64,000 bases of DNA from Candidatus Nomurabacteria bacterium RIFCSPLOWO2_01_FULL_39_18 (GCA_001787005.1 MFUV01000010.1:9955-73954), one strand, 5' to 3'. Positions 7,754 to 50,050 are shown, counted from the first letter of the stretch. Numbers and translations: made by a program. Notes: a model not told the origin generated them from the letters alone.

Positions 7754-8506
7754 ATGAAAACGAAGTTAATTCACGAAATCAGGGCGGTCAAAACAAAAAA
7801 AGAACTCGCTAATATAATAAAAGCGCAGAGAATCAGCGAGAAGGTGCTCCAGGATACTTTAGTAAAATTAAAAACTGGGATGACAGAATTTGCGGCCGCA
7901 AAATTTATCACTAAAAGATTTATAAAATACGGCGCGTCGATTTTAGCCTTTCCGCCAATAGTCGCTTTCGGTAAAAATACTGCAAATATTCACCACCAAC
8001 CAGGTAAAACAAAATTAAAAAGAGGAAACGCAGTCATGTTTGATTTTGGATGTACGGTTCATCACTATTGTTCAGATATGACTCGCACTTATTTCTGGGG
8101 AAAGCCGAGCGCTAAGCAAAAGAAGGTTTATCTAGCAGTACTAGAGGCTCAAAATCGCGCGCTAAAAAAATTACAAAAAGGGGAGAAAAGGGCCAGGATA
8201 ATAGATAAAGTTGCGCGAGAATTTTTAACTAGAAAGTTTAAAAATAATCCTGCCCGGCCTTTGGACGGGTTCAAGCATGGACTTGGTCATGGTGTTGGCA
8301 CTGCCATTCACGAGTGGCCAAATTTTAAGCCTAAAAGCGAAGATATTTTGCCGGTAGGTTGTGTGATGACTGTGGAGCCTGGGCTATATTTTAAAGGTTT
8401 CGGCGGAGTTCGTATTGAAGACATGGTTTTAATCACCAAGAGTGGCTGTAAAAATTTGACGAATACCCCTAAAAACTTAAAAAACGTAATATTACAGTCT
8501 AGATAA
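7754..8506 (+). CDS. map: M24-family metallopeptidase, probably methionine aminopeptidase
   Basis: 250 aa; DFGCTVHHYCSDMTRT, HGLGHGVGTAIHEWP, TVEPG and RIEDMV metal-ligand motifs in MetAP spacing. Confidence 0.6.
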   Translation: MKTKLIHEIRAVKTKKELANIIKAQRISEKVLQDTLVKLKTGMTEFAAAKFITKRFIKYGASILAFPPIVAFGKNTANIHHQPGKTKLKRGNAVMFDFGCTVHHYCSDMTRTYFWGKPSAKQKKVYLAVLEAQNRALKKLQKGEKRARIIDKVAREFLTRKFKNNPARPLDGFKHGLGHGVGTAIHEWPNFKPKSEDILPVGCVMTVEPGLYFKGFGGVRIEDMVLITKSGCKNLTNTPKNLKNVILQSR

Positions 8507-8603
8507 ATTTTTGCAAAAAATTTAGAGTTATCCACAGTTTTTTTGACTTTGTGATTTTTATCCTTTAGAATAAAGGGTAGGTTAAGAATAATTTTTTGCA
8601 AAA

Positions 8604-11006
8604 ATGACTATAAAAATTTATAAAAATAAAACCAGAGTGGCGTTGCTCTGTGGCGGACCATCGCTTGAGCGAGGGATATCATTGAACTCTGCTCGAAGCT
8701 TACTTGATCATTTGGGCAGTTTAGACGTGGATATTATTCCTATTTATTTCAACGAACAAAAAAAGCCATACAAAATATCTACTGCACAACTTTACTCTAA
8801 CACCCCGAGCGATTTTGATTTCAAGCTGGGCGGAACAAGCAAGGAACTTTCTCTGTCTGCTCTAGTTCGTATCTTGAAAAATGTTGACATTGTTTTTCCA
8901 TGTATGCACGGCAGTTTCGGTGAAGATGGGAGAGTTCAAAGTTTTCTTGAGAAATATGATATTCCATTTATTGGTTCTTCCTCAAAATCTTGCAAAATGG
9001 CTTTTGATAAATATAAAGCCAATGAATATATCCGTTCACTTGGATTTTATGCGCCCAATTCTATTGTTATTAAAATTACCGACACAAAAAAAGAAATTGA
9101 GAAAAAAGTAAAACAGTTTTGGAAAACTGAAAGAATCACTCGCGCCATAGTGAAGCCTGCTTCTGGTGGCTCAAGTATCGGCGTGTTTTCTGTGGCAAAT
9201 GAAAAGGACGCAATGGAAGCTATCGAGAAATTATTTAGCAAACGCATGGACACTCGAGTGGTAGTGGAACATTTTGCGAAAGGCAAAGAATTCACGGTGA
9301 TTATTTTACAAAACAGATTCAATATGCCCGTCGCTATTTTGCCGACAGAAATGGAAATGGATTACGAGAAACATCAGTTTTTTGATTTTCGAAAAAAATA
9401 TTTACCGACCAGACAGGTAACCCATCATTGTCCACCAAGATTCAAAAACGAAATAATCGAAAAAATACAGATAGAAGCGGAGCAACTCTTCTCCGTCCTG
9501 GGAATGCGGGACTTCGCCCGCTTCGATGGCTTCTTAATGCCTGACGGCAATATCTGGTTTTCTGATTTTAATCCGATTTCTGGCATGGAACAAAATAGTT
9601 TTTTATTTCAACAAGCTTCCAGAATCGGCTTTTCCCACCAAGATCTTTTTCGCTTTATAATGAATAACGCATGTCTTCGACGAAATATTCCCATACAAAT
9701 TAAAAATAAATTTACAAGTGGGAAACGCAAGTCTGTTGCAGTAATTTTTGGTGGGGAAACGGCAGAAAAACAAGTCTCACTGATGAGCGGAACAAATGTT
9801 TGGTTAAAATTGCGCGGGTCGGAGATTTATAAACCTTTTCCTTATTTATTAACGAAGAATAAAGAAGTCTGGGAGCTCCCGTATTCTTATATCCTCAATC
9901 ACACTGTTGAAGAAATAGTTGAAAATGCTCAGAATGCCAAAAGAGATATCGAGAGACTTTTTTTCTTAATTGAAAAGGTAAAAATTAAATTATTTTTAAA
10001 TCAATCCGATACTACTGAAGAGTTTTTTATGCCAAAGAAATTTCAACTAAATCAGATATTAAAAAAGCACCCGTTTATTTTCCTTGCTTTGCATGGCGGA
10101 GTTGGTGAAGATGGTACCTTACAAAAAGTTCTAGAGAACAAAAAAATAAAATTTAATGGTTCGGGAAGTGTTGCGTCTCATTTGTGTATGGATAAATGGG
10201 AAACAAATGAAACGATTGGACAAGCCGAAATAAAAGGGGTGGGCGTGGTAAAACATGTATTATTTAAAATAAAAGATGTTCCTGAAAATTTTAATAATGA
10301 ACTCTTAGAAGCACACTGGAGAATGTTGATGCAGCGATTGGACGCAAAAACCATAATCGGTAAACCCCGGGGCGATGGCTGCTCGGCTGGCGTAGTCAGA
10401 CTTTTTAATAGAAAGGATTTAGCTACTTATATAACTCTGATCAGAAAAAAAGTTCCAGTAGCACTTCCAAATACTTTTACCAATCAGATGAACAGTATTG
10501 ATATGCCAGAAGGAGAAGTGCAGGATATAATTTTTGAATCCTTCGTCGAGACAGACAGATTAAAAGTTCATGGCAGTAAAATTATGTATACTCTAAAAAG
10601 TGGATATGTAGAAATGACTGTTGGCGTGTTGGAAGATCATGGACGAATCAAATCTTTCTCACCTTCAATTACTGTGGCAGAAATGGCGATACTTTCTGTG
10701 GAAGAAAAATTTCAAGGCGGCACGGGAGTTAATATTACGCCACCACCTCATGAAATTGTTTCCAATAAAAGTCTCAATAAGATAAAGAGTTTAGTCGAAA
10801 AAGTTAGCGAATGTGTCGGTATTCGTGGCTATGCGAGGATAGACATATTTGCTCATGTTAAAACCGGTAATATTATTGTGATTGAAATCAACACCTTGCC
10901 GGGGCTTACCCCTTCAACTGTGCTCTTTCATCAGGCATTAGCAGAAAATCCGCCAATTTATCCATTACAACTATTTGAGAAAATTATAAAAAATGCTAGA
11001 TATTAA
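8604..11006 (+). CDS. ddl: tandem-duplicated D-alanine--D-alanine ligase-like ATP-grasp protein (Ddl-Ddl fusion)
   Basis: 800 aa; N-half has the Ddl N-domain and ATP-grasp (IVKPASGGSSIGV..). C-half repeats the N-domain (KRKSVAVIFGGETAEKQVSLMSG) and has a second grasp core (KPRGDGCSAGV..ARIDIF..EINTLPGLTP). Confidence 0.7.
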   Translation: MTIKIYKNKTRVALLCGGPSLERGISLNSARSLLDHLGSLDVDIIPIYFNEQKKPYKISTAQLYSNTPSDFDFKLGGTSKELSLSALVRILKNVDIVFPCMHGSFGEDGRVQSFLEKYDIPFIGSSSKSCKMAFDKYKANEYIRSLGFYAPNSIVIKITDTKKEIEKKVKQFWKTERITRAIVKPASGGSSIGVFSVANEKDAMEAIEKLFSKRMDTRVVVEHFAKGKEFTVIILQNRFNMPVAILPTEMEMDYEKHQFFDFRKKYLPTRQVTHHCPPRFKNEIIEKIQIEAEQLFSVLGMRDFARFDGFLMPDGNIWFSDFNPISGMEQNSFLFQQASRIGFSHQDLFRFIMNNACLRRNIPIQIKNKFTSGKRKSVAVIFGGETAEKQVSLMSGTNVWLKLRGSEIYKPFPYLLTKNKEVWELPYSYILNHTVEEIVENAQNAKRDIERLFFLIEKVKIKLFLNQSDTTEEFFMPKKFQLNQILKKHPFIFLALHGGVGEDGTLQKVLENKKIKFNGSGSVASHLCMDKWETNETIGQAEIKGVGVVKHVLFKIKDVPENFNNELLEAHWRMLMQRLDAKTIIGKPRGDGCSAGVVRLFNRKDLATYITLIRKKVPVALPNTFTNQMNSIDMPEGEVQDIIFESFVETDRLKVHGSKIMYTLKSGYVEMTVGVLEDHGRIKSFSPSITVAEMAILSVEEKFQGGTGVNITPPPHEIVSNKSLNKIKSLVEKVSECVGIRGYARIDIFAHVKTGNIIVIEINTLPGLTPSTVLFHQALAENPPIYPLQLFEKIIKNARY

Positions 11007-11805
11007 GAAAAAAAAGATAAATAATAGACCAATAGGTGTCTTTGATTCGGGGGTCGGGGGGCTCTCCATTTTTGTTGAACTAAAAAAACTTCTTCCTCAT
11101 GAGAATTTTGTATTTTTTGCAGATCAAAAAAATGTGCCTTATGGGGAAAAAAGCAAAAAAGAACTAGTTGGTTTTATGTACAAAGTAGTTGATTACCTGA
11201 AAGATAAGCATGACATCAAGATGTTTGTCATCGCCTGTAACACCGCTACCTGCTTTACAATAAAAGGACTTAGAGCAAGATATGCTATGCCTATGGTCGG
11301 CACAGAGCCTGCCGTTAAACCAGCCTCACAGGGTACCAAGACAGGCACAATCGCCATTATCTCAACCCCCGCTACATCAAAAAGTAAGACTGTAAAAAAA
11401 CTCATTAATGATTACGGAAATGGGATTACTGTATTGAATATCGGCTGTAAGAATCTAGAAAATACGGTAGAAAAGGGGAATCTCGAAAACCCCGAAGTCA
11501 ATAAATTACTCAGGAAATATCTAAAAGAAGTCAAAAATTCTAATACCGATCAGCTCGTCCTGGGCTGCACACATTATCCATTTCTTAAAATAGCGATAGA
11601 AAAAATTCTTGGCCCAAGCGTTAAGCTAGTTGATTCAGGTCAGGCAATTGCTCGACATACGAGGAGCTTATTGCAAACCCATAAAATTTTAAGTAAGGGA
11701 AAAGGTACAACGGCCTACTTTACTACTGGCAGTGCAAAAAAATTCTCAAAAGTCGCAAGTGAATTATTAAAGCATAAAATTAAAGCAAATAAGATCAAGC
11801 TTTAA
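10993..11805 (+). CDS. murI: glutamate racemase
   Basis: IGVFDSGVGGLSIF..ACNTAT..GCTHYP catalytic Cys motifs. Confidence 0.85.
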   Translation: MLDIKKKKINNRPIGVFDSGVGGLSIFVELKKLLPHENFVFFADQKNVPYGEKSKKELVGFMYKVVDYLKDKHDIKMFVIACNTATCFTIKGLRARYAMPMVGTEPAVKPASQGTKTGTIAIISTPATSKSKTVKKLINDYGNGITVLNIGCKNLENTVEKGNLENPEVNKLLRKYLKEVKNSNTDQLVLGCTHYPFLKIAIEKILGPSVKLVDSGQAIARHTRSLLQTHKILSKGKGTTAYFTTGSAKKFSKVASELLKHKIKANKIKL

Positions 11806-12045: not shown

Positions 12046-12058
12046 GTAGATGTTATTG

Positions 12059-12086
12059 AAAATCCCCAGTTGGGGATTTTCTTTTT
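12059..12086 (+). terminator. rho-independent terminator after rpmG
   Basis: aaaatcccc-agtt-ggggatttt stem-loop followed by cttttt. Confidence 0.65.
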
Positions 12087-12134: not shown

Positions 12135-12791
12135 ATGAAAAAGGATCTAGAGATAAAAGCTAAAAAATTACGCATAAAAGGATATTCAGTTAAAGAACTT
12201 CATCAAATACTTGGAGTATCAAAGAGCACGGTTTCTGGGTGGATTCAAGGTGTTAAACTTTCAGAAAAAGCTCAAATGCGTTTGAGGAAAAATTATACAA
12301 ATGGTCAACTTGCTTCTCAAAAAACTATAAAAGAAAAAACTCACCAGAAAAATATTATTGCCGATAATTTTGCTAGGGAAATCTTAAGTAAGATGAATTA
12401 CACAACAGCAGATCTAGCATTATTGTGCTCCATGATATATTTTTGTGAAGGAAATAAATCATTAAAAAGTCTTGTAACTTTTACAAATTCTGATCCTGAT
12501 CTAATTACTACTTTTATTTTTTTATTCAGAAACTCTTTCAAATTAGATGAATCGAAATTTAGAGTTTTAATGCACTTACATAAGTATCATAATGAAAAAA
12601 CAGAAAAAGATTTTTGGTCGAAAATTACAAAAATTCCACAAAATCAATTTAATAAAACTTATCTTAAACAAAATAGTGGAAAATATAAAAAAGAAGGATA
12701 TCAAGGTTGCATTAAAATATATTACGGAGATGTTTCTATTGCCAGAAAATTAAGGTCTATTGCAAAAATGTTCATGGAAAGGTATAAATAG
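12135..12791 (+). CDS. hypothetical protein with an N-terminal helix-turn-helix and a degenerate LAGLIDADG-like motif (possible homing-endonuclease relic)
   Basis: N-terminal YSVKELHQILGVSKSTVSGW resembles an HTH; IYFCEGNKS resembles a decayed LAGLIDADG; inserted between rpmG and tRNA-Trp. Confidence 0.3.
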   Translation: MKKDLEIKAKKLRIKGYSVKELHQILGVSKSTVSGWIQGVKLSEKAQMRLRKNYTNGQLASQKTIKEKTHQKNIIADNFAREILSKMNYTTADLALLCSMIYFCEGNKSLKSLVTFTNSDPDLITTFIFLFRNSFKLDESKFRVLMHLHKYHNEKTEKDFWSKITKIPQNQFNKTYLKQNSGKYKKEGYQGCIKIYYGDVSIARKLRSIAKMFMERYK

Positions 12792-32348: not shown

Positions 32349-33833
32349 ATGGCAGTTAAAAAGTCGACAACTAAAAACACTCCAAGGAACTTGGGGCAGG
32401 GGCTCACTTTTGACGATGTCCTGCTGGTGCCGAATTACAGCGAAGTTCTGCCGAAAAACGTCACCACCAAGACCCGTCTGACAAAAAACATCTCTTTAAA
32501 TATTCCCTTTATGTCAGCGCCAATGGACACAGTGACAGAAGCCCCGATGGCAATAGCCATGGCGCAACAAGGTGGTATCGGTATTATTCACAAAAATTTA
32601 TCGATTGTTGATCAAGCGAAAGAAGTAGAGCGCGTAAAGAGGTACGAAGCTGGACGAATTGCCAATCCCGTTACCCTTAGCGTTGGTCAAACAGTAGGCG
32701 ATGCATTTGCCATACAAAAAAAATATCATTTCGGCGGTTTTCCTGTTTTAAATAAAAATGGCGTTTTGGTGGGAATTGTTACAAATCGCGATCTCCGTTT
32801 TCAGAAAAACGAATCTACTCCGATAGAGGAAGTTATGACTACTAAATTAATAACTGGAGGACCAAATACATCTATTGAAGAAGCAAATGATCTGTTTAAT
32901 AAACACGCCATAGAAAAGCTCCCATTGGTTGATAAAAATAATAAATTAGTAGGACTCATCACTTATCGTGATATCGCAAAGTCGAAAGAATATCCAAATG
33001 CTACCAAAGATACCTTAGGTAGGCTTCGTGTTGGAGCTACGGTGGGAGTTGGGAAAGATGTTTTACAGCATGTTAAGGCATTAGTTAACAGTAATGTTGA
33101 TATAGTCTGTGTTGAGACCGCTCATGGACATTCGCGAGGCGTACTGGACGCCGTAAAAAGAATTCGTAAAGCATATCCGAAGTTAGATATTATTGCTGGA
33201 AATATTGCAACAGGTGAGGCGGCAAGGACTCTTATAGACGCTGGAACCAATGCAGTAAAAGTCGGCATCGGACCCGGCTCAATATGCACGACACGAGTTG
33301 TCTCAGGCGTTGGCGTGCCACAGCTCTCTGCGGTTTCTGCCGTTTATGAAGTTTGTAAAAAACTTAACATTCCAGTTATTGCCGACGGTGGAATCAAACA
33401 TAGCGGAGATGTAGTGAAAGCTCTCGTCTTTGGGGCTGATGTTGTAATGGGCGGATCAATGTTCGCCGGCACCGATGAATCCCCGGGAGACACCATTGCA
33501 ATGAATGATCAGAAATTTAAAAAATACCGAGGCATGGGTAGTTTAGGCGCAATGCAGAGGGGATCTAAGGATCGTTATTTTCAAGGTGATGAATATGACA
33601 TGACCAAGTTGGTTCCCGAAGGTGTTTCGGGACATGTAGCTTATAAGGGCGCGCTTTCTGAAGTGATTCATCAATTCGTCGGCGGACTCCGAGCGGGTAT
33701 GGGCTATCTAGGAGCAGAGACTATTTCAAAATTACGAAATGCTTCGTATTATACAATTACATCTGCCGGATTAAATGAAAGTCATATCCATGATATTTTC
33801 ATGGTTAAACCTTCGCCCAACTACAAAAAATGA
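32349..33833 (+). CDS. guaB: inosine-5'-monophosphate dehydrogenase
   Basis: [14 protein letters not shown] pair, catalytic [11 protein letters not shown] loop. Confidence 0.9.
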
Positions 33834-35218
33834 AATTAAAAAATAAATCAAAAATCACTCCTCTCATTGGCTTACAGTGGGGCGACGAGGGGAAGGGCAA
33901 GGGCGTCGCCCGAATCGCTTCTAGCTTGTCTAAAAATGATTTAATCGTGCGTTTCCAGGGTGGAAATAATGCCGGACACACCATTTGGCAAGGAGGCAAG
34001 TCTTATGTTTTTAAGCTGATTCCTTCGGGAATTTTTGGGAGGGCGCAAATTCACCTAGGCGCTGGCATGGTGGTCAATCCAAGCGCGTTTTTTAATGAAA
34101 CTAAAACCATCCCAAAAAATATTTCTTTTTTAAAAAGGTTGTCAGTTTCCCCTCATGCCGTATTGATTTTACCTACACACGTTTTGCTTGACTCTGTTTC
34201 AGAAACAAAAAAGGGTGACAAGAAGATTGGCTCGACAGGCAGAGGCATAGCGCCTGCATATACTGACCTGGTGTCGAGAAATGCCTTGCGAGTTGGCGAT
34301 ATATTTCAAAAAGATTTTAAAAAACGTTACCAAGTATTGTGCGACCAGCATAAAAAAATCCTTCTTAATTTATATAAATATAAAGTTAGCAGTGAGAAAT
34401 TTAAAAAAAGCGAAGGAAACTTTTTCTCTGGAATTAAATTTTTAAAGTCATTAACAATAAAAAATTCTGCTGATTTGGTTGCAGAAATATTGGCAAAGGG
34501 AGGGAAGATAATTGCCGAGGGGGCACAGGGCACATTTCATGATATTAGATTTGGCAATTACCCATTTGTCACATCTTCACATACTATTGCGGGCGGTGTG
34601 GCTACGGGTTTGGGCATACCTCCGTCCTGGATTGGTGGAGCAATTGGAATTTGTAAAGCCTATGCCACCAAGGTAGGCGAAGGACCTTTCCCGACGGAGC
34701 TTGGGGGAGAGAGGTCCGCTGTCTGGTGCCGAGATAAAAAATTCAATTATGAAAAAGAAAAATTCCCCAACCCCGGCCCGAACAGTAAGGATGAATTTAG
34801 GCAAGGAGTGGCGCTTCGCCGGCTTGGAAATGAAATTGGTGCAGTTACGGGGCGGCTTCGCCGCACCGGCTGGCTAGACATCCCGCTTATAAAATATGCG
34901 ATAAAAATAAACAACGCGACAGAGCTTGTATTAACGAAGCTGGATGTGTTGGATAATTTTAAAAAAATAAAAGTCTGCACTCACTATATTATCAACGGCA
35001 GAAGAACGACAGATATTCCATTTGATCTTTCTCGAGAGAAAATAAAATGCGTGTATAAATCTTTTCCTGTCTGGAGAGGGAAGTTGGAAGATTATGATAA
35101 TAAGCTTCCAAGAGAAGCACTTGATTATGTCCGATATTTAGAAAAAACTCTCGGCGTAAAAATTATCTACGTCGGCACCGGTCCCGAAGAGCATCATGTG
35201 GTAGAGCGATATTGGTAA
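33830..35218 (+). CDS. purA: adenylosuccinate synthetase
   Basis: GLQWGDEGKGK P-loop, GNNAGHT, TKLDVLD motifs. Confidence 0.9.
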   Translation: MKLKNKSKITPLIGLQWGDEGKGKGVARIASSLSKNDLIVRFQGGNNAGHTIWQGGKSYVFKLIPSGIFGRAQIHLGAGMVVNPSAFFNETKTIPKNISFLKRLSVSPHAVLILPTHVLLDSVSETKKGDKKIGSTGRGIAPAYTDLVSRNALRVGDIFQKDFKKRYQVLCDQHKKILLNLYKYKVSSEKFKKSEGNFFSGIKFLKSLTIKNSADLVAEILAKGGKIIAEGAQGTFHDIRFGNYPFVTSSHTIAGGVATGLGIPPSWIGGAIGICKAYATKVGEGPFPTELGGERSAVWCRDKKFNYEKEKFPNPGPNSKDEFRQGVALRRLGNEIGAVTGRLRRTGWLDIPLIKYAIKINNATELVLTKLDVLDNFKKIKVCTHYIINGRRTTDIPFDLSREKIKCVYKSFPVWRGKLEDYDNKLPREALDYVRYLEKTLGVKIIYVGTGPEEHHVVERYW

Positions 35219-35247
35219 AAAAGCTAATTTTATATTAATATAGTTAT

Positions 35248-38145
35248 ATGATTTCCCGAATATTCGTAATGCTGAAAAATGGGGCGACGAGAGCAGATTC
35301 TTATCTTATCGATTCTAAATTCTTGAAAAAAGAGTTAATCAAACTTGCGGAAGCGCTGACTAATCCGATCCTAGAAAATTTCTCTATCAACAACTTGGAG
35401 GTCTTGCCTCCAAATGGAGGCAAGACCTCCAAGTTTACTTATGCGATTGAAATTGGTTTCAAGCCTGGGGTGACCGATAATGTTGGACACACCGTCGAGG
35501 AAATTGCCAGAGATCTGCTTGGTGTAAAAAAGAATCCTGACTTCCACGTGTATACTTCAAAAATTGTTTTCATCTCTCTTTCAAAAAAAGATGCGGAAAA
35601 ATACGCTCTTACTTTGTATAACCCACTAATTGAAAAATCACTGATAGTACCAGTGAAGAACAAAAAGATAAGTTTGCCTAAAAAAGTGCCAAAGGTTGTC
35701 CTTAAAAAAAGAAAACCGGTTATAAATGTTTCTCTTAAGGTTTCTGATGAAGAACTCATTAAAATCGGCAAAGAGGGAATAAAGGATGGAGACGGCACAC
35801 GCAGAGGGCCATTGGCGCTCGACCTGGCATCTATGAAAACCATTCAGGGATATTTTAAAAAATTAAAAAGAAGTCCGACAGATATAGAACTTGAGTCCCT
35901 GGCGCAAACTTGGTCGGAACATTGCAAACATACCATTTTCGCCAATCCGATTGATAATATAAAAGATGGCTTATATAAAACTTATATAAAAGGCGCAACC
36001 AATTTAATACGCAAACAAAAAGGTAAAAATGATTTCTGCGTTTCTGTTTTCTCTGACAACTCTGGTGGAATTATTTTTGATAAGGACTATTTAATCACAC
36101 ATAAGGTTGAGACGCACAACAGCCCCTCGGCACTTGACCCGTTTGGCGGAGCTATTACCGGCATCGGAGGGGTAAATCGTGATGCCATTGGCTTCGGACT
36201 TGGCGCCAAACCAGTTGCGAATACTTATGGATTCTGCCTCGCTCCACCAGATGAAAAAAGAAAATTATTTAGGGATAAAGACAGAACTCAAGCCTTGCTA
36301 CCCGCAAAAAGAATTATGGAAGGAGTAATAAAGGGGATTAATGTCGGAGGAAATTGTTCCGGTATTCCGACTCTTTCCGGATTTATTAAATTCGATGACA
36401 GATTTAGAGGCAAACCTTTAGTTTTCGCTGGAACAGTTGGATTAATCCCGAGAAAGAATGGTAGTAAACTTCTACACGAGAAGAAGGCAAGGGTGGGGGA
36501 CTATATTGTGATGGTTGGCGGAAAGGTAGGGCTTGATGGTATACATGGAGCGACTTTTTCTTCGGTAACTCTTGATTCAACTTCGCCCGCAACCGCAGTG
36601 CAAATTGGCGACCCCATAACTCAAAAAAAGTTAAGCGATGCGATAGTCAAAGAAGCCAGGGGATTAAATTTATACAACAGCATCACGGACGACGGCGCGG
36701 GAGGACTGTCTTGTTCCGTGGCAGAAATGGCAAAAGAATGTGGTGGAGCAAAAGTAATGCTTGAAAAGGTGCCCTTGAAATACCCAGGACTGCGCCCTTG
36801 GGAAATCTGGATTTCGGAATCCCAGGAGCGGATGACACTCTCTGTGCCAAAAAAAAAGTGGAAGAAGTTTAATGAATTGATGAAAAGTCGGGGAGTAGAA
36901 GCTACGGTGATAGGAAAATTCACAAATTCAGGGAATTGTGTTGTGAATTATAAAGGCAAAAAGATAATGGACCTAGATATGGAATTCCTGCATAATGGAC
37001 TTCCCAAACAGCATTTAACCACGATTCCATATTTACAAAATAATAAAGAGCCTCAAATTCCCAAAAATTCATCACTTACAAAAACTTTGGAAAATTTGCT
37101 GGGAAATAATAACATCAGCGGTTTTTCTTATATCTCACAACAATATGACCATGAGGTGCAAGCGTCTTCTGTATTAAAACCTCTCTCGGGCAGGGGTCGC
37201 ATCAACACCGATGCGCAAGTTTTCCGGCCAGTTCTAAGTTCGGAAAAGGGCGTTATTCTGTCTACCGGAGTTTATCCTTCATATGGAGACATCAATACTT
37301 ATTACATGGCGGCTTGCGCGTTAGATACAGCAATTCGAAATATTATTGCTTCTGGTGGGTCACTATCTAATCTTGCGATCTTGGATAATTTCTGTTGGTG
37401 CTCGTCGTATGATAAAACTCGCTTGGCACAGCTTGTGGACGCAGTAAAGGCATGCTACGACTACGGAGTGGGCTACGGCACGCCTTTTATATCCGGTAAG
37501 GACAGCATGTTTAATGATTTTAGGGGTTATGATGAGAAGGGTAATCCTATCGCTATTTCTATCCCGCCAACACTGCTCATCTCGGCAATTGGAGTGGTGC
37601 CTGATATTTATAAAATAATTTCTCCTGAATTTAAAAATGTTGGAGACGTGATTTACTTGCTCGGAAAGACGGATGATGAGCTTGGTGGAAGTGAGTACTA
37701 TAAATCACTAAAGGCGGTTGGGAATGATGTGCCGAAAGTTAATTTGGAAAAAAATTTAAAAACATATTTAGCGCTTGAAAGGGCTATCCAGAAAGAATTG
37801 GTTGCTTCTTCGATTTCTGTAACTTCTGGGGGACTGGCAATAGCGCTGGCTAAGACATGTGTCGGTGGAATGCTCGGATGTAATATTAGCGTCAGGGGCA
37901 TGCCTGGAAGTTCAAAATCGGCCGATGCGAAGCTTTTTTCCGAAAGCCAGGGAAGGATTCTGGTATCTATATCGCCCCAAAATATAAGCGCATTTGAAAA
38001 AATCATAAAAAATATTCCTTATGCTAAAATGGGGAAAGTTGTAAAAGACGGAAAATTCACAATTACAGACAAAACAAAAATAGTTAAAACCGATGTTAAA
38101 AAACTGTACAAAATTTATCACAGATTTTCAGAAAAAATGAAATGA
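35248..38145 (+). CDS. purL: phosphoribosylformylglycinamidine synthase subunit PurL with N-terminal PurS-like domain
   Basis: 965 aa; N-terminal segment FKPGVTDNVGHTVEEIARDLLG resembles PurS; AIR-synthase-related repeats follow (ETHNSPSALDPFGGAITGIGG). Confidence 0.85.
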   Translation: MISRIFVMLKNGATRADSYLIDSKFLKKELIKLAEALTNPILENFSINNLEVLPPNGGKTSKFTYAIEIGFKPGVTDNVGHTVEEIARDLLGVKKNPDFHVYTSKIVFISLSKKDAEKYALTLYNPLIEKSLIVPVKNKKISLPKKVPKVVLKKRKPVINVSLKVSDEELIKIGKEGIKDGDGTRRGPLALDLASMKTIQGYFKKLKRSPTDIELESLAQTWSEHCKHTIFANPIDNIKDGLYKTYIKGATNLIRKQKGKNDFCVSVFSDNSGGIIFDKDYLITHKVETHNSPSALDPFGGAITGIGGVNRDAIGFGLGAKPVANTYGFCLAPPDEKRKLFRDKDRTQALLPAKRIMEGVIKGINVGGNCSGIPTLSGFIKFDDRFRGKPLVFAGTVGLIPRKNGSKLLHEKKARVGDYIVMVGGKVGLDGIHGATFSSVTLDSTSPATAVQIGDPITQKKLSDAIVKEARGLNLYNSITDDGAGGLSCSVAEMAKECGGAKVMLEKVPLKYPGLRPWEIWISESQERMTLSVPKKKWKKFNELMKSRGVEATVIGKFTNSGNCVVNYKGKKIMDLDMEFLHNGLPKQHLTTIPYLQNNKEPQIPKNSSLTKTLENLLGNNNISGFSYISQQYDHEVQASSVLKPLSGRGRINTDAQVFRPVLSSEKGVILSTGVYPSYGDINTYYMAACALDTAIRNIIASGGSLSNLAILDNFCWCSSYDKTRLAQLVDAVKACYDYGVGYGTPFISGKDSMFNDFRGYDEKGNPIAISIPPTLLISAIGVVPDIYKIISPEFKNVGDVIYLLGKTDDELGGSEYYKSLKAVGNDVPKVNLEKNLKTYLALERAIQKELVASSISVTSGGLAIALAKTCVGGMLGCNISVRGMPGSSKSADAKLFSESQGRILVSISPQNISAFEKIIKNIPYAKMGKVVKDGKFTITDKTKIVKTDVKKLYKIYHRFSEKMK

Positions 38146-39833
38146 AAACTGAAAATAAAAAATGCGAAAGTTGTAAAAAGGATTTCACTATCGAGCCGGA
38201 TGATTTTGGATTCTATGAACAAATGAAGGTCCCGCCGCCGGTCTGGTGTCCGCATTGCAGACTTCTGCGACGAATGGCTTGGTATGGCTACCGAATTTTA
38301 TATAAGCGCAAATGCGATTTCACCGGAGAAAATATTATCACGTTTTACCATCCGGATTTACCAGTCAAAGTCTACAAGCAAGATGTTTGGTGGGGCGATG
38401 GCTGGGATCCAAAAAGTTATGGGTGTGACTATGATTTCAATAGGCCTTTTTTCGAGCAGTATAAAGAATTATTGGATGAAGTGCCGAAGGCATCGCTCCA
38501 CACAGAATACAGCACTATGATAAACAGTGAATACTGCAACGCCGCCAGCTTTCAGAAAAATGGCTACTTGTGTTTCAAACATATTACCGGTGAAGATTCC
38601 GCATATACAAATGTTGCCTTAAATACGAAAGATTCTCTCGACCTGGCTTATTCCGCCGATCCTGAGCTTTGTTATGAAATTGTTGACGTGCGGAAGTGTT
38701 TTCAGACATTTTTTTCTCAGGATTGCGAGAATTGCCAAAATGTTTATTTTTCTCGAGACTTAGTGAATTGCGGCGATTGCTTTGGATGCACTTCTCTAAG
38801 AAATAAAAATTATTATATCTTTAACGAACAATATACACGAGAAGAATATATGAAAAAACTCAAGGAATTTAATCTTGGTTCAATGAAAAATGTACAGAAG
38901 TTCAAAAAGCAGGCATATGCCCTCTCGTTAAACTTTCCTCGTCGTTCCACGATGGGTCGTAATAATACAAATGTTTCTGGTGAATATATTTATAATTCTA
39001 AAAATACTCATGATTCATACTTCATTGCAGATTCAGAAAACGTCAGATATTGTCAATTGTTTTTAAAAGGCGGGGTGCATAACTGCTATGATTTCACGGC
39101 TTTTGGCTCTGCTTCAGAATGGGTTTACGAAGCGACGTGGACTGGGCTTAATACCTCCAATGTAAAATTCAGTATTTGGAATTATCGCAATCATGATACT
39201 GAATATACCTTTGGTTGCCATGGATGCGCTTATTTATTTGGTTGTGTCGGACTCCGAAAGGCGGAATATTGCATTTTCAACAAGCAATACACTAAGGAAG
39301 AATATTTTCCACTGGTTGAGAAAATAAAAAAGCAGATGGATGACATGCCATTCGTGGACAGAAGGGGATTAGAACATAGATATGGCGGGCAAATGCCTAT
39401 AGATCTTTGTCCTTGGGCATACAATGAAACTACCGCTTACGAATTTTTTCCACTCACCAAAGAAGAAGCATTGGCAAAAGGCTTTGCCTGGCGCGACCCT
39501 GACGAACGAGAATATCTTCCAGCCACCATTGTCGTGCCTGACCATATTAAAGATGTAACAGATGATATAACAAAAGAAGTTTTGAAGTGCGAAGCTTGTG
39601 GCAAAAATTATCAAATTATTCAAAAAGAACTTCAATTTTTGAAACGATTTAATCTTCCCATCCCTATCCATTGCCCGCTTTGTCGTGACAGGGCCCGCAT
39701 TAAACAATTAAACCCAATACAAAGCTATAATCGCAAATGTGATAAGTGCGATGTGACCATCCAAACTTCCTACGCTCCCGACCGACCAGAAATAGTGTAT
39801 TGCGAGAATTGTTACAAACAAGAAGTATATTAA
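38142..39833 (+). CDS. large cysteine-rich protein of unknown function, paralog 1 (zinc-ribbon-like modules at both termini)
   Basis: 563 aa, >35 Cys; N-terminal CESCKK..FYEQMKVPPPVWCPHCRLLRR, C-terminal CEACGK..IHCPLCRDRAR..YCENCYKQEVY; two internal C-x2-C..FGC..FN.QYT.EEY repeats; overlaps the purL stop by 4 nt. Confidence 0.5.
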   Translation: MKTENKKCESCKKDFTIEPDDFGFYEQMKVPPPVWCPHCRLLRRMAWYGYRILYKRKCDFTGENIITFYHPDLPVKVYKQDVWWGDGWDPKSYGCDYDFNRPFFEQYKELLDEVPKASLHTEYSTMINSEYCNAASFQKNGYLCFKHITGEDSAYTNVALNTKDSLDLAYSADPELCYEIVDVRKCFQTFFSQDCENCQNVYFSRDLVNCGDCFGCTSLRNKNYYIFNEQYTREEYMKKLKEFNLGSMKNVQKFKKQAYALSLNFPRRSTMGRNNTNVSGEYIYNSKNTHDSYFIADSENVRYCQLFLKGGVHNCYDFTAFGSASEWVYEATWTGLNTSNVKFSIWNYRNHDTEYTFGCHGCAYLFGCVGLRKAEYCIFNKQYTKEEYFPLVEKIKKQMDDMPFVDRRGLEHRYGGQMPIDLCPWAYNETTAYEFFPLTKEEALAKGFAWRDPDEREYLPATIVVPDHIKDVTDDITKEVLKCEACGKNYQIIQKELQFLKRFNLPIPIHCPLCRDRARIKQLNPIQSYNRKCDKCDVTIQTSYAPDRPEIVYCENCYKQEVY

Positions 39834-39837
39834 AATG

Positions 39838-39874
39838 CTATTCTAGTGTTTTGCAAAAAACTGAAATAAGAAAA
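39838..39874. promoter_or_regulatory. copy of the TTCTAGTGTTTTGCAAAA-ACTGAAATA motif between the two Cys-rich paralogs
   Basis: ctattctagtgttttgcaaaaaactgaaataagaaaa; about 95% identical to 56897-56934 and related to the palindrome at 1788. Confidence 0.45.
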
Positions 39875-41619
39875 TGGAGAATAAAAAAGAAAACAAAATA
39901 TGCCAGAATTGTAAAAAGAATTTCGTCATTGAACCGGATGATTTTTCTTTTTATGAAAAGATGCGGGTACCGCCGCCGACCTTTTGCCCGGAGTGCAGAT
40001 TTCAAAGAAGACTATTGTTCAGAAATAATCGGGTTTTTTATAGGCGAGAGTGCGCTTTATGTAATAAATCAATATTGAGTGTGTACAACAAGAAAAAGTC
40101 TTACACTATTTTTTGTCATGAATGTTGGCTTTCTGATAAATGGGATCCAATGGACTATGGCCGCGAATATGATTTTTCCATTCCATTTTTCAGCCAATTT
40201 CGCTCACTGCAATCAAAAGTCCCCAGGGCGAATTTATATAGAGAAAATTTTATATTAAGTGATTACTGCAACTACGGTCTTGATTTTAAAGAATGCTATT
40301 TATTGTTTGGTGGACAAAATAACGAAAGAGTATATTTTGGAAACCAAATTTTTGATTCACACGATTCTTTTGATATAGCTTTTTCTGAAAAAGTAGAATT
40401 CAGTTATGAAATTTTTGAATGCGCCAGAACCAATCTTTTGTTCTTCAGCCACCATTCAAATGACTGCATTGATAGTTTTTATTTAGCAGACTGTAGAAAC
40501 TGCATGAATTGTTTTGGTTGTGTTGGGTTAGTGAACAAACAATATTATGTTTTTAATAAACCATACACCAAAGAACAATATCAAAAATTTATAAAATCAA
40601 ATAATATTGGAAGTTTCAAAAATCATCAGGAATTCCTTAAAAAACTCAAAGAATTAGAATCAAAAATACCTCATCGTTATGCTCGTATTTATAAATCAGT
40701 GAATTCTGACGGTGACGACTTGTCAGAAGCTAGAAGTACTCATAACTCTTTTAGCTCTCGCCAAGCTGAAGATTCTAAATATTTATTTTTCTGCAGGCAT
40801 AGGTCAAAAGATTGCTATGATAATTCGTTTAATGGCGTAAACGCTGAACTTCTTTATGAGATTGCTCATGGTTTTGGAGGATCAAATGGAGCCTTCAGCA
40901 TGAGAAATTTTGATAACCAAGATTTTTTCTATAACGAAGAATGCCATAACTGCCATAATATTTTCGGATGTGAAGGTCTACGCAAGAAACAGTACTGTAT
41001 TTTAAATAAACAATACAACAAAAAAGAATATGGAGAGATTTTGCCAAAAATAATCAAGCACATGAATGATATGCCGTATCATGACCAGAAAGGAAGAACC
41101 TATAAATACGGAGAGTTTTTCCCGGCGGAACTTTCGCCTTTTGCTTATAATGAAAGTATCGCTCAAGAATATTTCCCCTTAACAAAGGAAGAAGCTTTAG
41201 AACAAGAATATAAATGGGAAGATGGAGAAACGAGGAATTATAAAATTGATATAGATAGTAAAGATATCCCAGACCACATAAAAGATGTTGGGGAGGATAT
41301 TGTGGGTAAAGTTATCGCTTGTGAACATGCGGGAGGATGCAAAGACCAATGCACTGAAGCATTTAAGATTGTTCCAGAAGAATATAAATTTTATAAAAGA
41401 TTCAACTTGCCACTACCCAGGTTGTGTTCAAATTGCCGGCATTATCAGCGAATCGGATTAAGAAATCCACTAAAGCTCTGGGATAGAAAGTGCATGTGTG
41501 ATAAAGAAGGTCATTTCCATGAAAAAGAAAAATGTGTAGTAGAATTCAAAACAAGTTACGCTCCCGATCGACCAGAAATCATTTTTTGTGAAAAATGTTA
41601 CCAGCAAGAAATTTATTAG
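39874..41619 (+). CDS. large cysteine-rich protein of unknown function, paralog 2
   Basis: 581 aa; same architecture as paralog 1 and roughly 40-45% identical by eye (CQNCKKNF..FYEKMRVPPPTFCPECRFQRR .. FCEKCYQQEIY). Confidence 0.5.
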   Translation: MENKKENKICQNCKKNFVIEPDDFSFYEKMRVPPPTFCPECRFQRRLLFRNNRVFYRRECALCNKSILSVYNKKKSYTIFCHECWLSDKWDPMDYGREYDFSIPFFSQFRSLQSKVPRANLYRENFILSDYCNYGLDFKECYLLFGGQNNERVYFGNQIFDSHDSFDIAFSEKVEFSYEIFECARTNLLFFSHHSNDCIDSFYLADCRNCMNCFGCVGLVNKQYYVFNKPYTKEQYQKFIKSNNIGSFKNHQEFLKKLKELESKIPHRYARIYKSVNSDGDDLSEARSTHNSFSSRQAEDSKYLFFCRHRSKDCYDNSFNGVNAELLYEIAHGFGGSNGAFSMRNFDNQDFFYNEECHNCHNIFGCEGLRKKQYCILNKQYNKKEYGEILPKIIKHMNDMPYHDQKGRTYKYGEFFPAELSPFAYNESIAQEYFPLTKEEALEQEYKWEDGETRNYKIDIDSKDIPDHIKDVGEDIVGKVIACEHAGGCKDQCTEAFKIVPEEYKFYKRFNLPLPRLCSNCRHYQRIGLRNPLKLWDRKCMCDKEGHFHEKEKCVVEFKTSYAPDRPEIIFCEKCYQQEIY

Positions 41620-41622
41620 TAC

Positions 41623-41656
41623 ACATACCAACATACTGGAGTTTGTAAGGATATTA
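41623..41656. promoter_or_regulatory. second copy of the 34-bp ACATAC-AACATACTGGAGTTTGTAAG-ATATTA motif, ending 5 bp upstream of the purQ ATG
   Basis: 32/34 identical to 30599-30632. Confidence 0.5.
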
Positions 41657-41661
41657 AAATT

Positions 41662-44507: not shown

Positions 44508-44511
44508 TCGA

Positions 44512-45234: not shown

Positions 45235-45243
45235 AATAATAAT

Positions 45244-46539: not shown

Positions 46540-46551
46540 TAGTATGAATTC

Positions 46552-47100
46552 ATGAAAAAGACTATCTCGGTGGGAATAATCATGGGTTCGGATTCAGATT
46601 TGGCGGTTATGGCTGAAGCTGGTACGGTTATAGAAGAATTTGACATATCATATGAAATTACCGTGGCTTCAGCCCATCGTAGTCCAGAGTTGGTGCATAA
46701 ATATGTAACTACCGCCAAAGAACGGGGAATAAAAGTTATTATCGCCGGAGCAGGCGGAGCAGCACATTTGGCAGGAGTAGCGGCCTCGCTCACTACACTT
46801 CCGGTTATCGGTATACCAATAAAAACAAAAAGTTTGGACGGGCTTGATTCACTTCTGTCCACCATAAGTATGCCTCCGGGGGTGCCGGTGGCAACCGTTG
46901 GTATCAATGCCGGCAAAAATGCCGGACTCCTTGCGGTGCAAATCCTTGCAATAGGTAATAAAAATTTGGAAAGTAAATTAATTGCCTACAAAGAAAAAAT
47001 GAATATTGAGATAAAGATAAAGGGTGAAAAGCTTTCCGAAATCGGATATAAAAAATATTTGGCCTCGCCCGTGGACGACCTACGGCCGAGGGAGAAATAA
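46552..47100 (+). CDS. purE: (N5-carboxy)aminoimidazole ribonucleotide mutase/carboxylase PurE
   Basis: [26 protein letters not shown] motifs. Confidence 0.85.
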
Positions 47101-47102
47101 AA

Positions 47103-47945: not shown

Positions 47946-47949
47946 TCAC

Positions 47950-49110: not shown

Positions 49111-49113
49111 TGT

Positions 49114-50049: not shown

Positions 50050-50050
50050 T

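Follow-up and report, generated by a model that had tools for sequence, protein, structure and literature searches.

A widespread tandem Ddl-Ddl protein with two different active sites, the second of putatively altered specificity

D-Ala-D-Ala ligase (Ddl), the target of D-cycloserine, has long been a model target for antibiotics, and Ddl specificity decides vancomycin sensitivity. A gene in the window, the whole stretch of 64,000 nucleotides from Candidatus Nomurabacteria bacterium RIFCSPLOWO2_01_FULL_39_18 analyzed here, raises the question of what two Ddl-like modules in a single chain make and whether they make the same thing. According to the ORF listing of the window, the gene opens with an ATG and runs for 800 codons without an internal stop or frame change (Table 1); because its stop-to-stop frame begins at 8592, the ATG at 8604 is the earliest possible start. 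Pfam matched Dala_Dala_lig_N and Dala_Dala_lig_C in the N-half (E = 2.8e-23 and 2.6e-32) and again in the C-half (E = 7.5e-19 and 1.3e-15), all far above chance level and with PF01820 followed by PF07478 in each module; a match to CPSase_L_D2 was marginal (E = 0.052). These results bear out the fusion of two Ddl-like modules that the original prediction had read from the DNA, including the repeated Ddl N-domain in the C-half, where KRKSVAVIFGGETAEKQVSL lies at aa 374 to 393 and FLALHGGVGEDG at aa 493 to 504, and the second ATP-grasp core, which is the Dala_Dala_lig_C match found there. Against TIGR01205, the whole protein scored 355.8 bits, the sum of its two modules; alone, the N-half reached 226.6 bits and the C-half 128.6 bits, each below the curated whole-protein cutoff of 245.65 bits. 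The second module is indeed the more divergent, as had been claimed, and its lower score is mostly due to three insertions. Identity between the N- and C-modules is 24%.

The murI gene begins before the tandem gene ends, with a 14-nt overlap up to the end of the stop codon; therefore, the two genes are probably cotranscribed and translationally coupled. The terminator-like hairpin beyond murI is a possible end of this ddl-ddl-murI unit. The promoter-like site upstream of the ATG matches the consensus weakly, and such sites are no more numerous in the region than shuffling would lead one to expect. Besides MurI, peptidoglycan genes of the window encode MurA, MurG, MraY, FtsW, and PBP2.

Table 1. 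Features of the tandem gene and its surroundings, with positions counted from the first nucleotide of the window
Feature	Position	Strand	Description
Promoter-like site TTGACT-17-TAGAAT	8543..8571	+	33 nt upstream of the ATG; weak consensus match
Tandem Ddl-Ddl gene	8604..11006	+	800 aa plus stop; one ORF; Pfam N- and C-domains twice; 115 full-length homologues
N-module	8604..9680	+	aa 1-359; complete Ddl fold; aligned with EcDdlB and VanA
N-module residues			Glu22, His102, Lys136, Lys184, Ser190-Ser191, Lys265-Tyr266, Arg306, Asp308, Asp321 (Glu270 site), Asn323, Ser332-Phe333
Asp321 codon, N-module	9564..9566	+	Site of Mg2+ ligand EcDdlB Glu270
Intermodule linker	9681..9728	+	aa 360-375, RNIPIQIKNKFTSGKR; coil in model
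C-module	9729..11003	+	aa 376-800; complete, divergent Ddl fold
C-module residues			Glu388, His497, Lys531, Lys587, Cys593-Ser594, Leu697, Lys702-Phe703, Arg745, Asp747, Glu761, Asn763, Thr772-Val773
C-module N-domain insertion	9882..10070	+	aa 427-489; from alignment
Cys593 codon, C-module	10380..10382	+	EcDdlB Ser150 site (P-loop and triad)
Two C-module central-domain insertions	10437..10607	+	aa 612-640 and 649-668; aligned with EcDdlB, VanA, and the N-module
C-module omega-loop	10671..10748	+	aa 690-715, TVAEMAILSVEEKFQGGTGVNITPPP; Leu697 = Tyr210 site, Lys702-Phe703 = Lys215-Tyr216 sites
Thr772-Val773 codons	10917..10922	+	EcDdlB Ser281-Leu282 sites, D-Ala2 carboxylate loop
murI (glutamate racemase)	10993..11805	+	TIGR00067, 5.4e-71
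Terminator-like hairpin	12058..12081	+	10 pairs plus T-run, 3' of murI

An AlphaFold2 model of the full chain (pLDDT 92.4, pTM 0.92) displays the three-domain Ddl fold in each module, and all structural matches obtained with Foldseek were Ddl-family ligases (Ddl, VanA, VanG, and LmDdl2), with TM-scores relative to the target of at most 0.90. The region of lowest confidence is the omega-loop of the C-module (pLDDT 64 to 67, aa 691 to 710), as expected of a mobile lid. DSSP assigned the linker as coil (block pLDDT 89 to 92), and the linker is poorly conserved (column conservation of 0.57 for aa 361 to 380). Homodimers recur across the Ddl family (PMC6899670). Whereas canonical Ddl is a homodimer, the tandem holds two modules in one chain; from the model, we infer that it forms a fixed pseudo-dimer in place of the usual Ddl homodimer.

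The protein is far from unique to this genome. Full-length homologues of ~800 aa numbered 115 (59 to 83% identity), with a mean column conservation of 0.82 in the N-half and 0.76 in the C-half. At E ≤ 1e-30, 286 representatives of the C-type module were retrieved, nearly all of them located at residues ~360 to 790 of ~800-aa proteins in N-then-C order. At least 8 phyla contain tandems, with complete genomes and cultured strains represented (80 of 576 genome-collection loci listed), and the hosts comprise Patescibacteria, Dependentiae, Parachlamydiaceae (MAGs L019 and L047), Bdellovibrionota, Planctomycetota, Verrucomicrobiota, Clostridia, and cultured actinomycetes (Dactylosporangium and Pseudofrankia), the last being free-living with replicons of 8 to 13 Mb. 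The tandem is carried, for example, by CP129486.1 (Bdellovibrionota), OY970310.1 (Babeliales), NZ_CP192032.1, Dactylosporangium matsuzakiense GCA_039535355.1, and the long Patescibacteria contig Ga0376277_0000371. This reach far beyond Patescibacteria had gone unnoticed in the original prediction. All C-modules form one clade, and the two modules are ancient, nonidentical paralogues that were locked together before several phyla diverged. The ~740-aa tandems of Dependentiae were considered as an independent fusion and rejected; both of their modules carry the same signature, and only the insertions are missing. Split N and C genes, considered as evidence of a heterodimer, were also set aside, because the "C-only" proteins were almost all incomplete gene calls on short contigs; P0135 (locus L086), with an unrelated gene upstream, is the sole apparently real stand-alone C-type gene. 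No C-type module was found on plasmids, and the search for phage-borne copies yielded none, apart from one generic 24% match in a phage contig.

Residues are hereafter numbered as in E. coli DdlB (EcDdlB) unless the protein's own aa number is given. In both modules, the equivalents of Glu15, His63, Lys97, Lys144, Glu187, Lys215, Arg255, Asp257, and Asn272 are invariant, and that of Glu180 is nearly so. Over the 12 ATP, Mg2+, and D-Ala1 sites, which include Glu270 and Gly276, the one exception is conservative, namely, Glu270 to Asp in the N-module, and the D-Ala1 site (Glu15, His63, Arg255, and Gly276) is intact in both modules. The N-module residues of Table 1 are invariant in the 115 close and ~115 distant homologues. 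Judged by these residues, each module appears to be a catalytically competent ATP-grasp ligase with binding sites for ATP/Mg2+ and the first D-alanine. The suggestion that the second half could be a degenerate regulatory copy does not agree with these data: it has retained all ATP-grasp catalytic residues, and they are invariant across phyla.

The positions that are invariant in a module-specific manner are concentrated within three loops (P-loop, omega-loop, and D-Ala2 loop), and the resulting signature is common to tandems throughout, with few exceptions. The N-module keeps Ser150 and Tyr216, and hence the Glu15-Ser150-Tyr216 triad of dipeptide-type enzymes, but has Asp for Glu270 (115 of 115 close homologues and 107 of 111 tandems) and Phe for Leu282, so that its D-Ala2 loop reads Ser-Phe instead of Ser281/Leu282. 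Thus, the N-half is a complete Ddl in fold, as predicted, but with these two invariant changes it is not fully canonical. The C-module replaces Ser150 by Cys (115 of 115 close homologues and 141 of 146 distant representatives, with Ser at two Clostridia loci), Tyr210 by Leu, Tyr216 by Phe (115 of 115 and 145 of 147), Ser281 by Thr (115 of 115 and 142 of 144), and Leu282 by Val (114 of 115 close homologues; Val or Cys across phyla). Its triad is therefore Glu-Cys-Phe and its D-Ala2 loop Thr-Val; the omega-loop is glycine-rich and near-invariant along its columns, and about eleven other positions lining the pocket carry invariant changes specific to the C-module. Inspection of the omega-loop and second-substrate pocket, which had been proposed as a check, thus revealed family-invariant changes in the omega-loop triad and the D-Ala2 loop. 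In 22 single-module Ddl enzymes, Ser150, Tyr216, and Glu270 were present in all, Ser281 was present in 21, and position 282 was always Leu, Met, or Ile.

Canonical Ddl (E. coli DdlB/DdlA, EC 6.3.2.4; PDB 2DLN, 3I12, and 7U9K) shares its fold, its PF01820 and PF07478 domains, and its ATP, Mg2+, and D-Ala1 residues with each tandem module; it differs from the N-module at Glu270 and Leu282, and from the C-module in the five substitutions above and the three insertions. The VanA/VanB and VanC/VanG ligases likewise have the same fold and catalytic core. However, VanA has Glu-Val (Glu246-Val247) at 215/216 and Arg at 282, where the C-module has Lys-Phe and Val, and VanG (4FU0) aligns with EKY and SHSR, that is, Lys-Tyr and Arg at 282; this Arg is missing from both tandem modules. 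All Van-specific NCBIfam models remained far below their cutoffs (for VanA/VanB, NF000206 with 167 versus 550 and NF012217 with 120 versus 775; for VanC/VanG, NF000091 with 249 versus 495). Alignment to Ddl, VanA, and VanG, as had been recommended, therefore shows a C-module whose omega-loop and position 282 resemble neither Van type, and its identity as a VanA-type ligase or as a VanG-type D-Ala-D-Ser ligase is unlikely.

To our knowledge, Lys-Phe in the omega-loop is otherwise found only in depsipeptide ligases. Phe703 of the C-module aligns with EcDdlB Tyr216 and corresponds to LmDdl2 Phe261; the Leuconostoc mesenteroides D-Ala-D-lactate ligase LmDdl2 (PDB 1EHI), which has Lys-Phe at the Lys215-Tyr216 site as the C-module does, was among the best Foldseek matches. 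In the lactic-acid-bacterial DdlA-type enzymes in which the rule was established, Phe or Tyr at this omega-loop site decides between depsipeptide and dipeptide activity (LmDdl F261Y and L. reuteri F258Y; PMC5996685). In contrast to the tandem, the Phe-type depsipeptide ligases have a single module, and the C-module loop, KFQGGTGVN, does not share the sequence of the lactic-acid-bacterial DdlA-type loops. PDB 1IOW, the E. coli DdlB Y216F mutant, was also among the Foldseek matches. By analogy, the nearest precedent for the C-module would be the Phe-type depsipeptide ligase together with this mutant.

For the arrangement of the chain, the carbamoyl-phosphate synthetase large subunit (CarB) has two ATP-grasp modules, each catalyzing a different step, and offers a precedent for ATP-grasp duplication followed by division of labor in one polypeptide, although it belongs to another ATP-grasp subfamily with other chemistry. 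A literature search for a Ddl-Ddl tandem found no paper on one, in keeping with the earlier remark that no characterized example was known; the only Ddl fusion found was MurC-Ddl. In the chlamydial MurC-Ddl fusion, as it appears where McCoy and Maurelli 2005 is cited in PMC12283558 and PMC5814848, Ddl is also joined to a peptidoglycan-precursor enzyme, but the partner is a Mur ligase and not a second Ddl. The tandem has no Mur-ligase domain in Pfam, and its NF011171 score of 176 is far from the 1015-bit cutoff.

The recurrent neighbor of the tandem is alanine racemase (alr), not murI. In ~14 of 50 tandem loci, from several phyla, alr lies within three genes, and in 11 it is adjacent, frequently separated from the tandem, or overlapping it, by a few bases; canonical Ddl also has the link to alr. 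The reported adjacency to murI stands for the window but not as a general trait, as murI adjoins the tandem in 1 of 52 loci, which is the window itself, and murI as a conserved partner pointing to a D-Glu-using module was rejected on this count. The actinomycete loci encode, within ~3 kb of the tandem, a class-I aminotransferase as well as a fusion of MurF-like and Alr parts (MurF-like-Alr; NF008897, ~530 bits). A PF00155 enzyme encoded close to the tandem of Dactylosporangium was considered as an orthologue of the fused domain of P0079 and rejected, with just 28% identity and generic class-I aminotransferase matches. The gene neighborhoods suggest that the tandem acts after alanine racemase and before MurF, in the branch that supplies D-Ala to peptidoglycan precursors. 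Neither a D-2-hydroxyacid dehydrogenase nor a VanX-like dipeptidase turned up in the annotated ORFs of the window or in the neighborhoods examined, and these neighborhoods had no biosynthetic-cluster genes close by.

The best explanation, in which we place moderate confidence, is a covalent pseudo-heterodimer in which one module is a D-Ala-D-Ala ligase and the other has an altered specificity for the second substrate. Two ancient, nonidentical Ddl paralogues share one polypeptide, with a short variable linker between them. The N-module, having kept the Glu-Ser-Tyr triad, would most likely make D-Ala-D-Ala, and the C-module, whose triad is fixed as Glu-Cys-Phe and whose omega-loop and D-Ala2 loop are rebuilt, would most likely couple the D-alanyl-phosphate intermediate to another second substrate or to a wider range of them; a single protein could in this way supply two kinds of stem-peptide termini. 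The different substrate originally suggested for the second module accordingly leads among the candidates on the strength of the invariant changes in the triad and the D-Ala2 loop, but D-Ala-D-Ser of the VanG type, like a VanA-type product, appears unlikely. The N-module is itself noncanonical at 270 and 282, so that the role of the ordinary ligase may belong to either module or to neither. More specifically, we tentatively propose that the C-module makes a noncanonical D-Ala-X terminus (D-Ala-D-lactate, or another D-amino or hydroxy acid) and that the tandem is a dual-product enzyme feeding peptidoglycan precursors; in actinomycetes, D-Ala-X might be handed on via the neighboring MurF-like-Alr fusion. 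Since known resistance systems remove D-Ala-D-Ala, an enzyme making both D-Ala-D-Ala and D-Ala-D-Lac fits poorly.

It is possible, if rather doubtful, that the tandem is instead a covalent dimer of isozymes. Both modules would then be ordinary D-Ala-D-Ala ligases, the fusion would stabilize an obligatory dimer or fix stoichiometry, and the module-specific substitutions would tune kinetics (D-Ala affinity, product inhibition) with the product unchanged. Such an enzyme would account for the retention of all catalytic and D-Ala1-site residues in both modules, for alr as the main neighbor, and for neighborhoods in which no hydroxy-acid dehydrogenase was seen. E. coli and Salmonella each have a pair of Ddl isozymes that make one and the same product, and according to Park, Lin and Walsh (1996), D-Ala-D-Ala synthesis reportedly survives the Y216F mutation of E. 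coli DdlB. However, the C-module has identical Cys, Phe, and Thr in lineages that are ~28% identical overall, at sites where single-module Ddl enzymes almost always keep Ser150, Tyr216, and Ser281. The same replacements across distant lineages therefore point to selection for a different state and not to relaxed drift, and the further C-specific changes in the pocket likewise argue against an unchanged product.

The remaining explanations are less probable. That the product is something other than the peptidoglycan dipeptide, whether through sequential sites (dipeptide and then tripeptide), transfer of D-Ala onto another acceptor, or an accessory secondary-product enzyme in large genomes, we consider improbable. 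Both modules do depart from canonical Ddl at 282 and elsewhere in the pocket, both carry invariant acidic motifs (NTPSDF and HTVEEI), and the free-living actinomycetes with the tandem almost certainly have a standard ddl as well; yet the conserved partners, Alr and the MurF-like ligase, represent the steps flanking Ddl, biosynthetic-cluster genes were not seen near the tandem, the intact D-Ala1 sites come with no evident pocket for a large acceptor, and retention of the tandem in the strongly reduced genomes of Patescibacteria and Dependentiae indicates a core function. It is very unlikely that one module is a noncatalytic structural or regulatory partner, as might be supposed from the large insertions and low score of the C-half (128.6 bits against the 245.65-bit cutoff) or from the replacement of the Mg2+ ligand Glu270 in the N-module. 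Asp retains the carboxylate, and pseudo-enzymes normally lose catalytic or binding residues, whereas the ATP-, Mg2+-, and D-Ala1-binding residues are invariant in both modules across >250 sequences from many phyla. Finally, an artifact in which a frameshift in the reads or a false join in the assembly fused adjacent ddl genes can practically be dismissed. We found no evidence for either: the frame is uninterrupted, the junction is common to the 115 independent ~800-aa homologues, the same junction and length recur in independent assemblies by the hundreds, complete chromosomes and cultured strains among them, and the C-only proteins were nearly all incomplete gene calls.

These data define a large and apparently unstudied Ddl family with two different active sites in one chain, whose signature is sharp enough for members to be recognized by sequence alone. 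The "complete peptidoglycan pathway" of genome-reduced lineages currently relies on this tandem, annotated as an ordinary Ddl; if an alternative terminus comes from the second site, the reconstruction of peptidoglycan precursors would change for CPR bacteria, Dependentiae, and environmental chlamydiae. Should the D-Ala-X proposal be true, Patescibacteria, Dependentiae, environmental Chlamydiae, Bdellovibrionota, and some actinomycetes would build alternative stem-peptide endings and be intrinsically less glycopeptide sensitive, and the tandem would represent an old chromosomal route to, and reservoir of, glycopeptide-insensitive chemistry with no relation to the van operons. With D-Ala-D-Ala as the product of both sites, the family would still be a natural test of the Ddl dimer requirement. 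The cultured hosts Dactylosporangium matsuzakiense and Pseudofrankia make the question directly testable.

In Dependentiae C-modules (375 aa), the N-domain insertion is absent or far shorter. The N-domain insertion of each module bears its invariant acidic motif, NTPSDF in the N-module and, in near-invariant columns at aa 433 to 438, HTVEEI in the C-module.

The tandem Ddl-Ddl protein is encoded by a single, unbroken frame in the ORF listing of the window, starting at the first ATG past an in-frame stop. Both peptides quoted in the original prediction were recovered, at aa 374 to 393 and 493 to 504, and the predicted presence of two Ddl-like modules in one chain was borne out by the Pfam domains Dala_Dala_lig_N (N-half, 2.8e-23; C-half, 7.5e-19) and Dala_Dala_lig_C (ATP-grasp; N-half, 2.6e-32; C-half, 1.3e-15), each matched twice. 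Each half also matched solved Ddl structures in sequence. The NCBIfam matches were generic Ddl models only; the whole protein reached 355.8 bits with TIGR01205 and passed the cutoff of 245.65 only as a two-module sum (N-half alone, 226.6 bits; C-half alone, 128.6 bits). By fold and catalytic core, the tandem belongs to the Ddl superfamily. None of the frames of the 64-kb window holds a second Ddl-like ORF. The downstream murI (TIGR00067, 5.4e-71) overlaps the tandem stop codon by 14 nt, and a ddl-ddl-murI unit is possibly bracketed by a promoter-like site and a strong terminator-like hairpin, both weak consensus matches.

Coordinates of the tandem gene and of associated features
Feature	Locus	Coordinates	Remark
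Ddl-Ddl tandem	window	8604..11006 (+)	800 codons
In-frame stop	window	8589-8591	before the start codon
Promoter-like site	window	8543-8571	upstream of tandem
Terminator-like hairpin	window	12058-12081	
NTPSDF motif	window	8799-8816	N-module aa 66-71
HTVEEI motif	window	9900-9917	C-module aa 433-438
murI start	window	10993	
M24 peptidase	window	7754-8506	250 aa
HTH_23 protein	window	12135-12791	218 aa
HTH_23 protein	L002	13907-14563	218 aa
HTH_23 protein	L003	4282-4938	218 aa
Tandem with aminotransferase domain (P0079)	L004/L005	6001-9543	
MurF-like-Alr fusion	L087	14927-17413	actinomycete tandem locus
MurF-like-Alr fusion	L088	5020-7521	actinomycete tandem locus
TraT-like gene	L020	8543-9295	1.2e-51
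Partial C-module copy	L017	9348-10376	342 aa
Apparent stand-alone C-type gene (P0135)	L086	368-1630	420 aa
Purine de novo cluster	window	32349-51439	
ORFs without Pfam or NCBIfam match	window	38142-39833, 39874-41619, 44512-45234, 47103-47945	inside purine cluster

A search of a 5.8-billion-protein collection retrieved >100 full-length homologues (~780 to 830 aa, 59 to 83% identity) from Patescibacteria MAGs (Nomurabacteria, Paceibacterota, and Taylorbacteria), labeled "hypothetical protein," "ATP-grasp domain-containing protein," or "D-alanine--D-alanine ligase." Across 115 aligned homologues, both halves were strongly conserved, with a mean column conservation of 0.82 for the N-half and 0.76 for the C-half, and only the N terminus, the linker (~aa 360 to 375), and some surface segments varied. 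When the C-half alone served as the query in an exhaustive profile-free search, 286 cluster representatives were obtained at E ≤ 1e-30; of the 150 listed, almost every one carried the C-type module at ~residues 360 to 790 of an ~800-aa protein, and HMMs built for each half returned a fixed order, N-type then C-type. The tandem is neither an artefact nor a local oddity. An assembly or frameshift artefact was rejected, as the unbroken ORF and the >100 full-length homologues speak against it. Almost all "C-only" proteins proved to be truncated gene calls whose starts fall within the tail of the N-module or at the edge of a contig. One stand-alone C-type gene, P0135, does look genuine and has the complete Cys/Leu/Phe/Thr/Val signature; its contig is only 1.6 kb, an N-type gene may lie elsewhere, and the preceding gene is unrelated, with a C terminus resembling phosphatidylserine decarboxylase.

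We scanned one genome per GTDB species, which confirmed 576 related loci. Among the best 80 of these, full-length tandems occurred well outside Patescibacteria, in Dependentiae/Babeliales, Parachlamydiaceae, Planctomycetota, Verrucomicrobiota, Alphaproteobacteria, Bdellovibrionota (including the complete chromosome CP129486), Clostridia and Ruminococcus, Acidimicrobiia, Solirubrobacteraceae, Mycobacteriales, and Dactylosporangium (complete chromosome). A second protein search found the tandem in Pseudofrankia and in many cultured strains of Dactylosporangium, D. matsuzakiense among them; the actinomycete tandems are annotated as hypothetical or "Ddl family protein." No C-type module was found on plasmids. 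In a neighbor-joining tree, all C-modules formed one clade and most N-modules another, with the Dependentiae N-modules branching apart; the two modules of the window protein are 24% identical. The simplest history would be one ancient duplication-fusion followed by division of labor and vertical or horizontal spread. Within the best 80 loci the distribution is patchy across at least eight phyla (L006 to L058), and species living as epibionts, intracellular parasites, or predators (Patescibacteria, Dependentiae, Parachlamydiaceae, Bdellovibrionota, and Micavibrio) make up many of the hosts; free-living actinomycetes and Clostridia are hosts too. Some MAGs, such as those labeled "Francisella," "Desulfohalobiaceae," and "Gammaproteobacteria," have tandems 50 to 53% identical to Patescibacteria proteins and look mis-binned. 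A TraT-like conjugal-transfer surface-exclusion gene directly 3' of the tandem in a MAG labeled Pseudomonadota could reflect horizontal transfer or mis-binning. In the verrucomicrobial "Ca. Moanabacter" (L017), a partial copy 71% identical to the C-module of the same locus lies ~950 bp downstream of the tandem; it lacks the N-domain and the Glu15 and His63 equivalents and may be a pseudogene.

Both modules were aligned to E. coli DdlB (from the MG1655 record; its numbering is used) and to VanA, whose sequence was checked as 100% identical to annotated vanA. All ATP, Mg2+, and first-D-alanine residues are kept in both: Glu15, His63, Lys97, Lys144, Glu180, Glu187, Lys215, Arg255, Asp257, Asn272, and Gly276. 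Little or no variation occurs at these positions in 115 close homologues, ~150 distant representatives, and 27 tandems of different phyla; therefore, the degenerate second copy that the original prediction had entertained is ruled out. The modules differ at other pocket positions, and these differences are as fixed across tandems as the catalytic residues.

Pocket residues in 22 single-module Ddl proteins and in the two tandem modules
DdlB residue	Single-module Ddl	N-module	C-module
Ser150	Ser 22/22	Ser190	Cys593 (Ser in two Clostridia)
Tyr210	Tyr or Phe	Phe260	Leu697
Tyr216	Tyr 22/22	Tyr266	Phe703
Glu270	Glu 22/22	Asp321	Glu761
Ser281	Ser 21/22	Ser332	Thr772
Leu282	Leu, Met, or Ile	Phe333	Val773 (Cys in Dependentiae)

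A column scan found module-specific near-invariant changes concentrated in the pocket, namely, E148D, S150C, Y210L, A214E, Y216F, T221G, Y223N, M259F, M277L, S279P, and S281T in the C-module and V258G, E270D, L282F, and P284F in the N-module. The substitution pattern extends to the Dependentiae tandems, which have an overall identity of only ~29% and no C-module insertions. The C-module lacks the triad and D-Ala2-loop features of dipeptide-forming Ddl, and neither module fits a Van-type or MurC-Ddl model. The near-invariant acidic motifs NTPSDF and HTVEEI occupy the same alignment position in an N-domain insertion, where most single-module Ddl proteins sampled have a gap; they may form an interface or touch the substrate.

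AlphaFold2, run on the full 800-residue chain with a 95-sequence alignment, gave a mean pLDDT of 92.4 and a pTM of 0.92, the latter high enough, for a two-module protein, to make the position of one module relative to the other a confident prediction. Inside the chain, confidence was lowest in the C-module omega-loop (aa ~691 to 710; pLDDT, 64 to 67), as would be expected of a mobile lid. Foldseek matched only single Ddl, VanG, VanA, and LmDdl2 chains in the PDB, one module each (target-normalized TM-scores reached 0.90, and query-normalized ones were no higher than 0.40), and no solved tandem was among them. Because Ddl enzymes recurrently crystallize as homodimers (PMC6899670), the tandem is predicted to be a covalent pseudo-heterodimer.

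Both modules would activate D-alanine as an acyl-phosphate. The N-module, with its Glu-Ser-Tyr triad intact, would make D-Ala-D-Ala. The remodeled lid and D-Ala2 loop of the C-module, together with its Glu-Cys-Phe triad, suggest that it accepts another nucleophile or a wider range of them. We give an even chance to this reading, one D-Ala-D-Ala ligase module joined to one of altered second-substrate specificity in a covalent pseudo-heterodimer. The chief alternative has D-Ala-D-Ala as the product of both sites; it agrees with the shared catalytic residues, is opposed by the fixed C-module substitutions, and appears less likely.

To our knowledge, Lys-Phe at the C-module's omega-loop site is found among characterized enzymes only in the depsipeptide-forming Ddl of Leuconostoc/Lactobacillus, besides the E. 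coli DdlB Y216F mutant. That mutant reportedly gains depsipeptide activity (Park, Lin and Walsh, 1996), and its structure, 1IOW, was among the Foldseek matches. In the Leuconostoc/Lactobacillus enzymes, Phe versus Tyr decides between D-Ala-D-Lac and D-Ala-D-Ala (PMC5996685). Unlike the C-module, VanA has Glu-Val and VanG has Lys-Tyr, each with Arg282. That the altered second substrate is specifically D-lactate seems improbable. Against it, neither the window nor the neighborhoods examined showed a hydroxy-acid dehydrogenase or a D-Ala-D-Ala dipeptidase, one protein making both termini matches no known resistance logic, and the N-module is itself noncanonical. Full-text literature searches returned no description of a Ddl-Ddl tandem, the chlamydial MurC-Ddl being the only Ddl fusion found, and no NCBIfam model is specific to such tandems. 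The family, though present in databases, is unnamed and, in the literature searched, uncharacterized.

In close relatives, the upstream order is mreB, holB, frr, rseP, and then the tandem, whereas what follows it differs: the window has murI, L002 and L003 have alr, and proteins P0064 and P0079 continue into a fused class-I aminotransferase domain. The murI adjacency originally noted is thus true of the window but not general, occurring there only among 52 tandem loci; in the same set, alr lies within three genes in ~14 loci of several phyla and is adjacent in 11, and overlaps or spacings of just a few bases are common. The tandem of D. matsuzakiense and that of Pseudofrankia each adjoin an ~830-aa protein matching NF008897 (MurF-like-alanine racemase fusion) at ~530 bits, under the 804-bit cutoff, with a PF00155 aminotransferase and an AsnC regulator also nearby; 725- to 851-aa neighbors in alr clusters of Mycobacteriales and Acidimicrobiia (L026, L027, and L071) are probably the same fusion. 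Therefore, the conserved partners are the steps just before (Alr) and after (MurF-like) the Ddl reaction. Genes for MurA, MurG, MraY, FtsW, PBP2, MurI, CtpA, and an M23 peptidase are likewise present in the window, which indicates that peptidoglycan is made by this organism.

The Pseudofrankia neighborhood lies between glmS and tsaE-tsaB-rimI-tsaD; in mycobacteria, alr sits beside tsaE. The third, C-terminal aminotransferase domain of P0079 and P0064 (PF00155, 8e-57; 1,173 to 1,180 aa in total) is only 28% identical to the actinomycete neighbor and could supply L-Ala upstream of racemization or be a read-through gene call. Elsewhere in the window is a near-complete purine de novo cluster, unusual for Patescibacteria (guaB, purA, purL, purQ, purF, purN, purD, purE, purM, purC, and purB); no purH or purK was seen in it, so its four match-less ORFs may be replacements. 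The M24 peptidase directly upstream of the tandem is missing at this position in the related loci L002 and L004, and its motifs (HGLGHGVG and GGVRIED) look by eye closer to the Xaa-Pro peptidase branch than to methionine aminopeptidase. Close relatives keep a 218-aa protein with a weak HTH_23 match as the second gene after the tandem, with either murI or alr in between.
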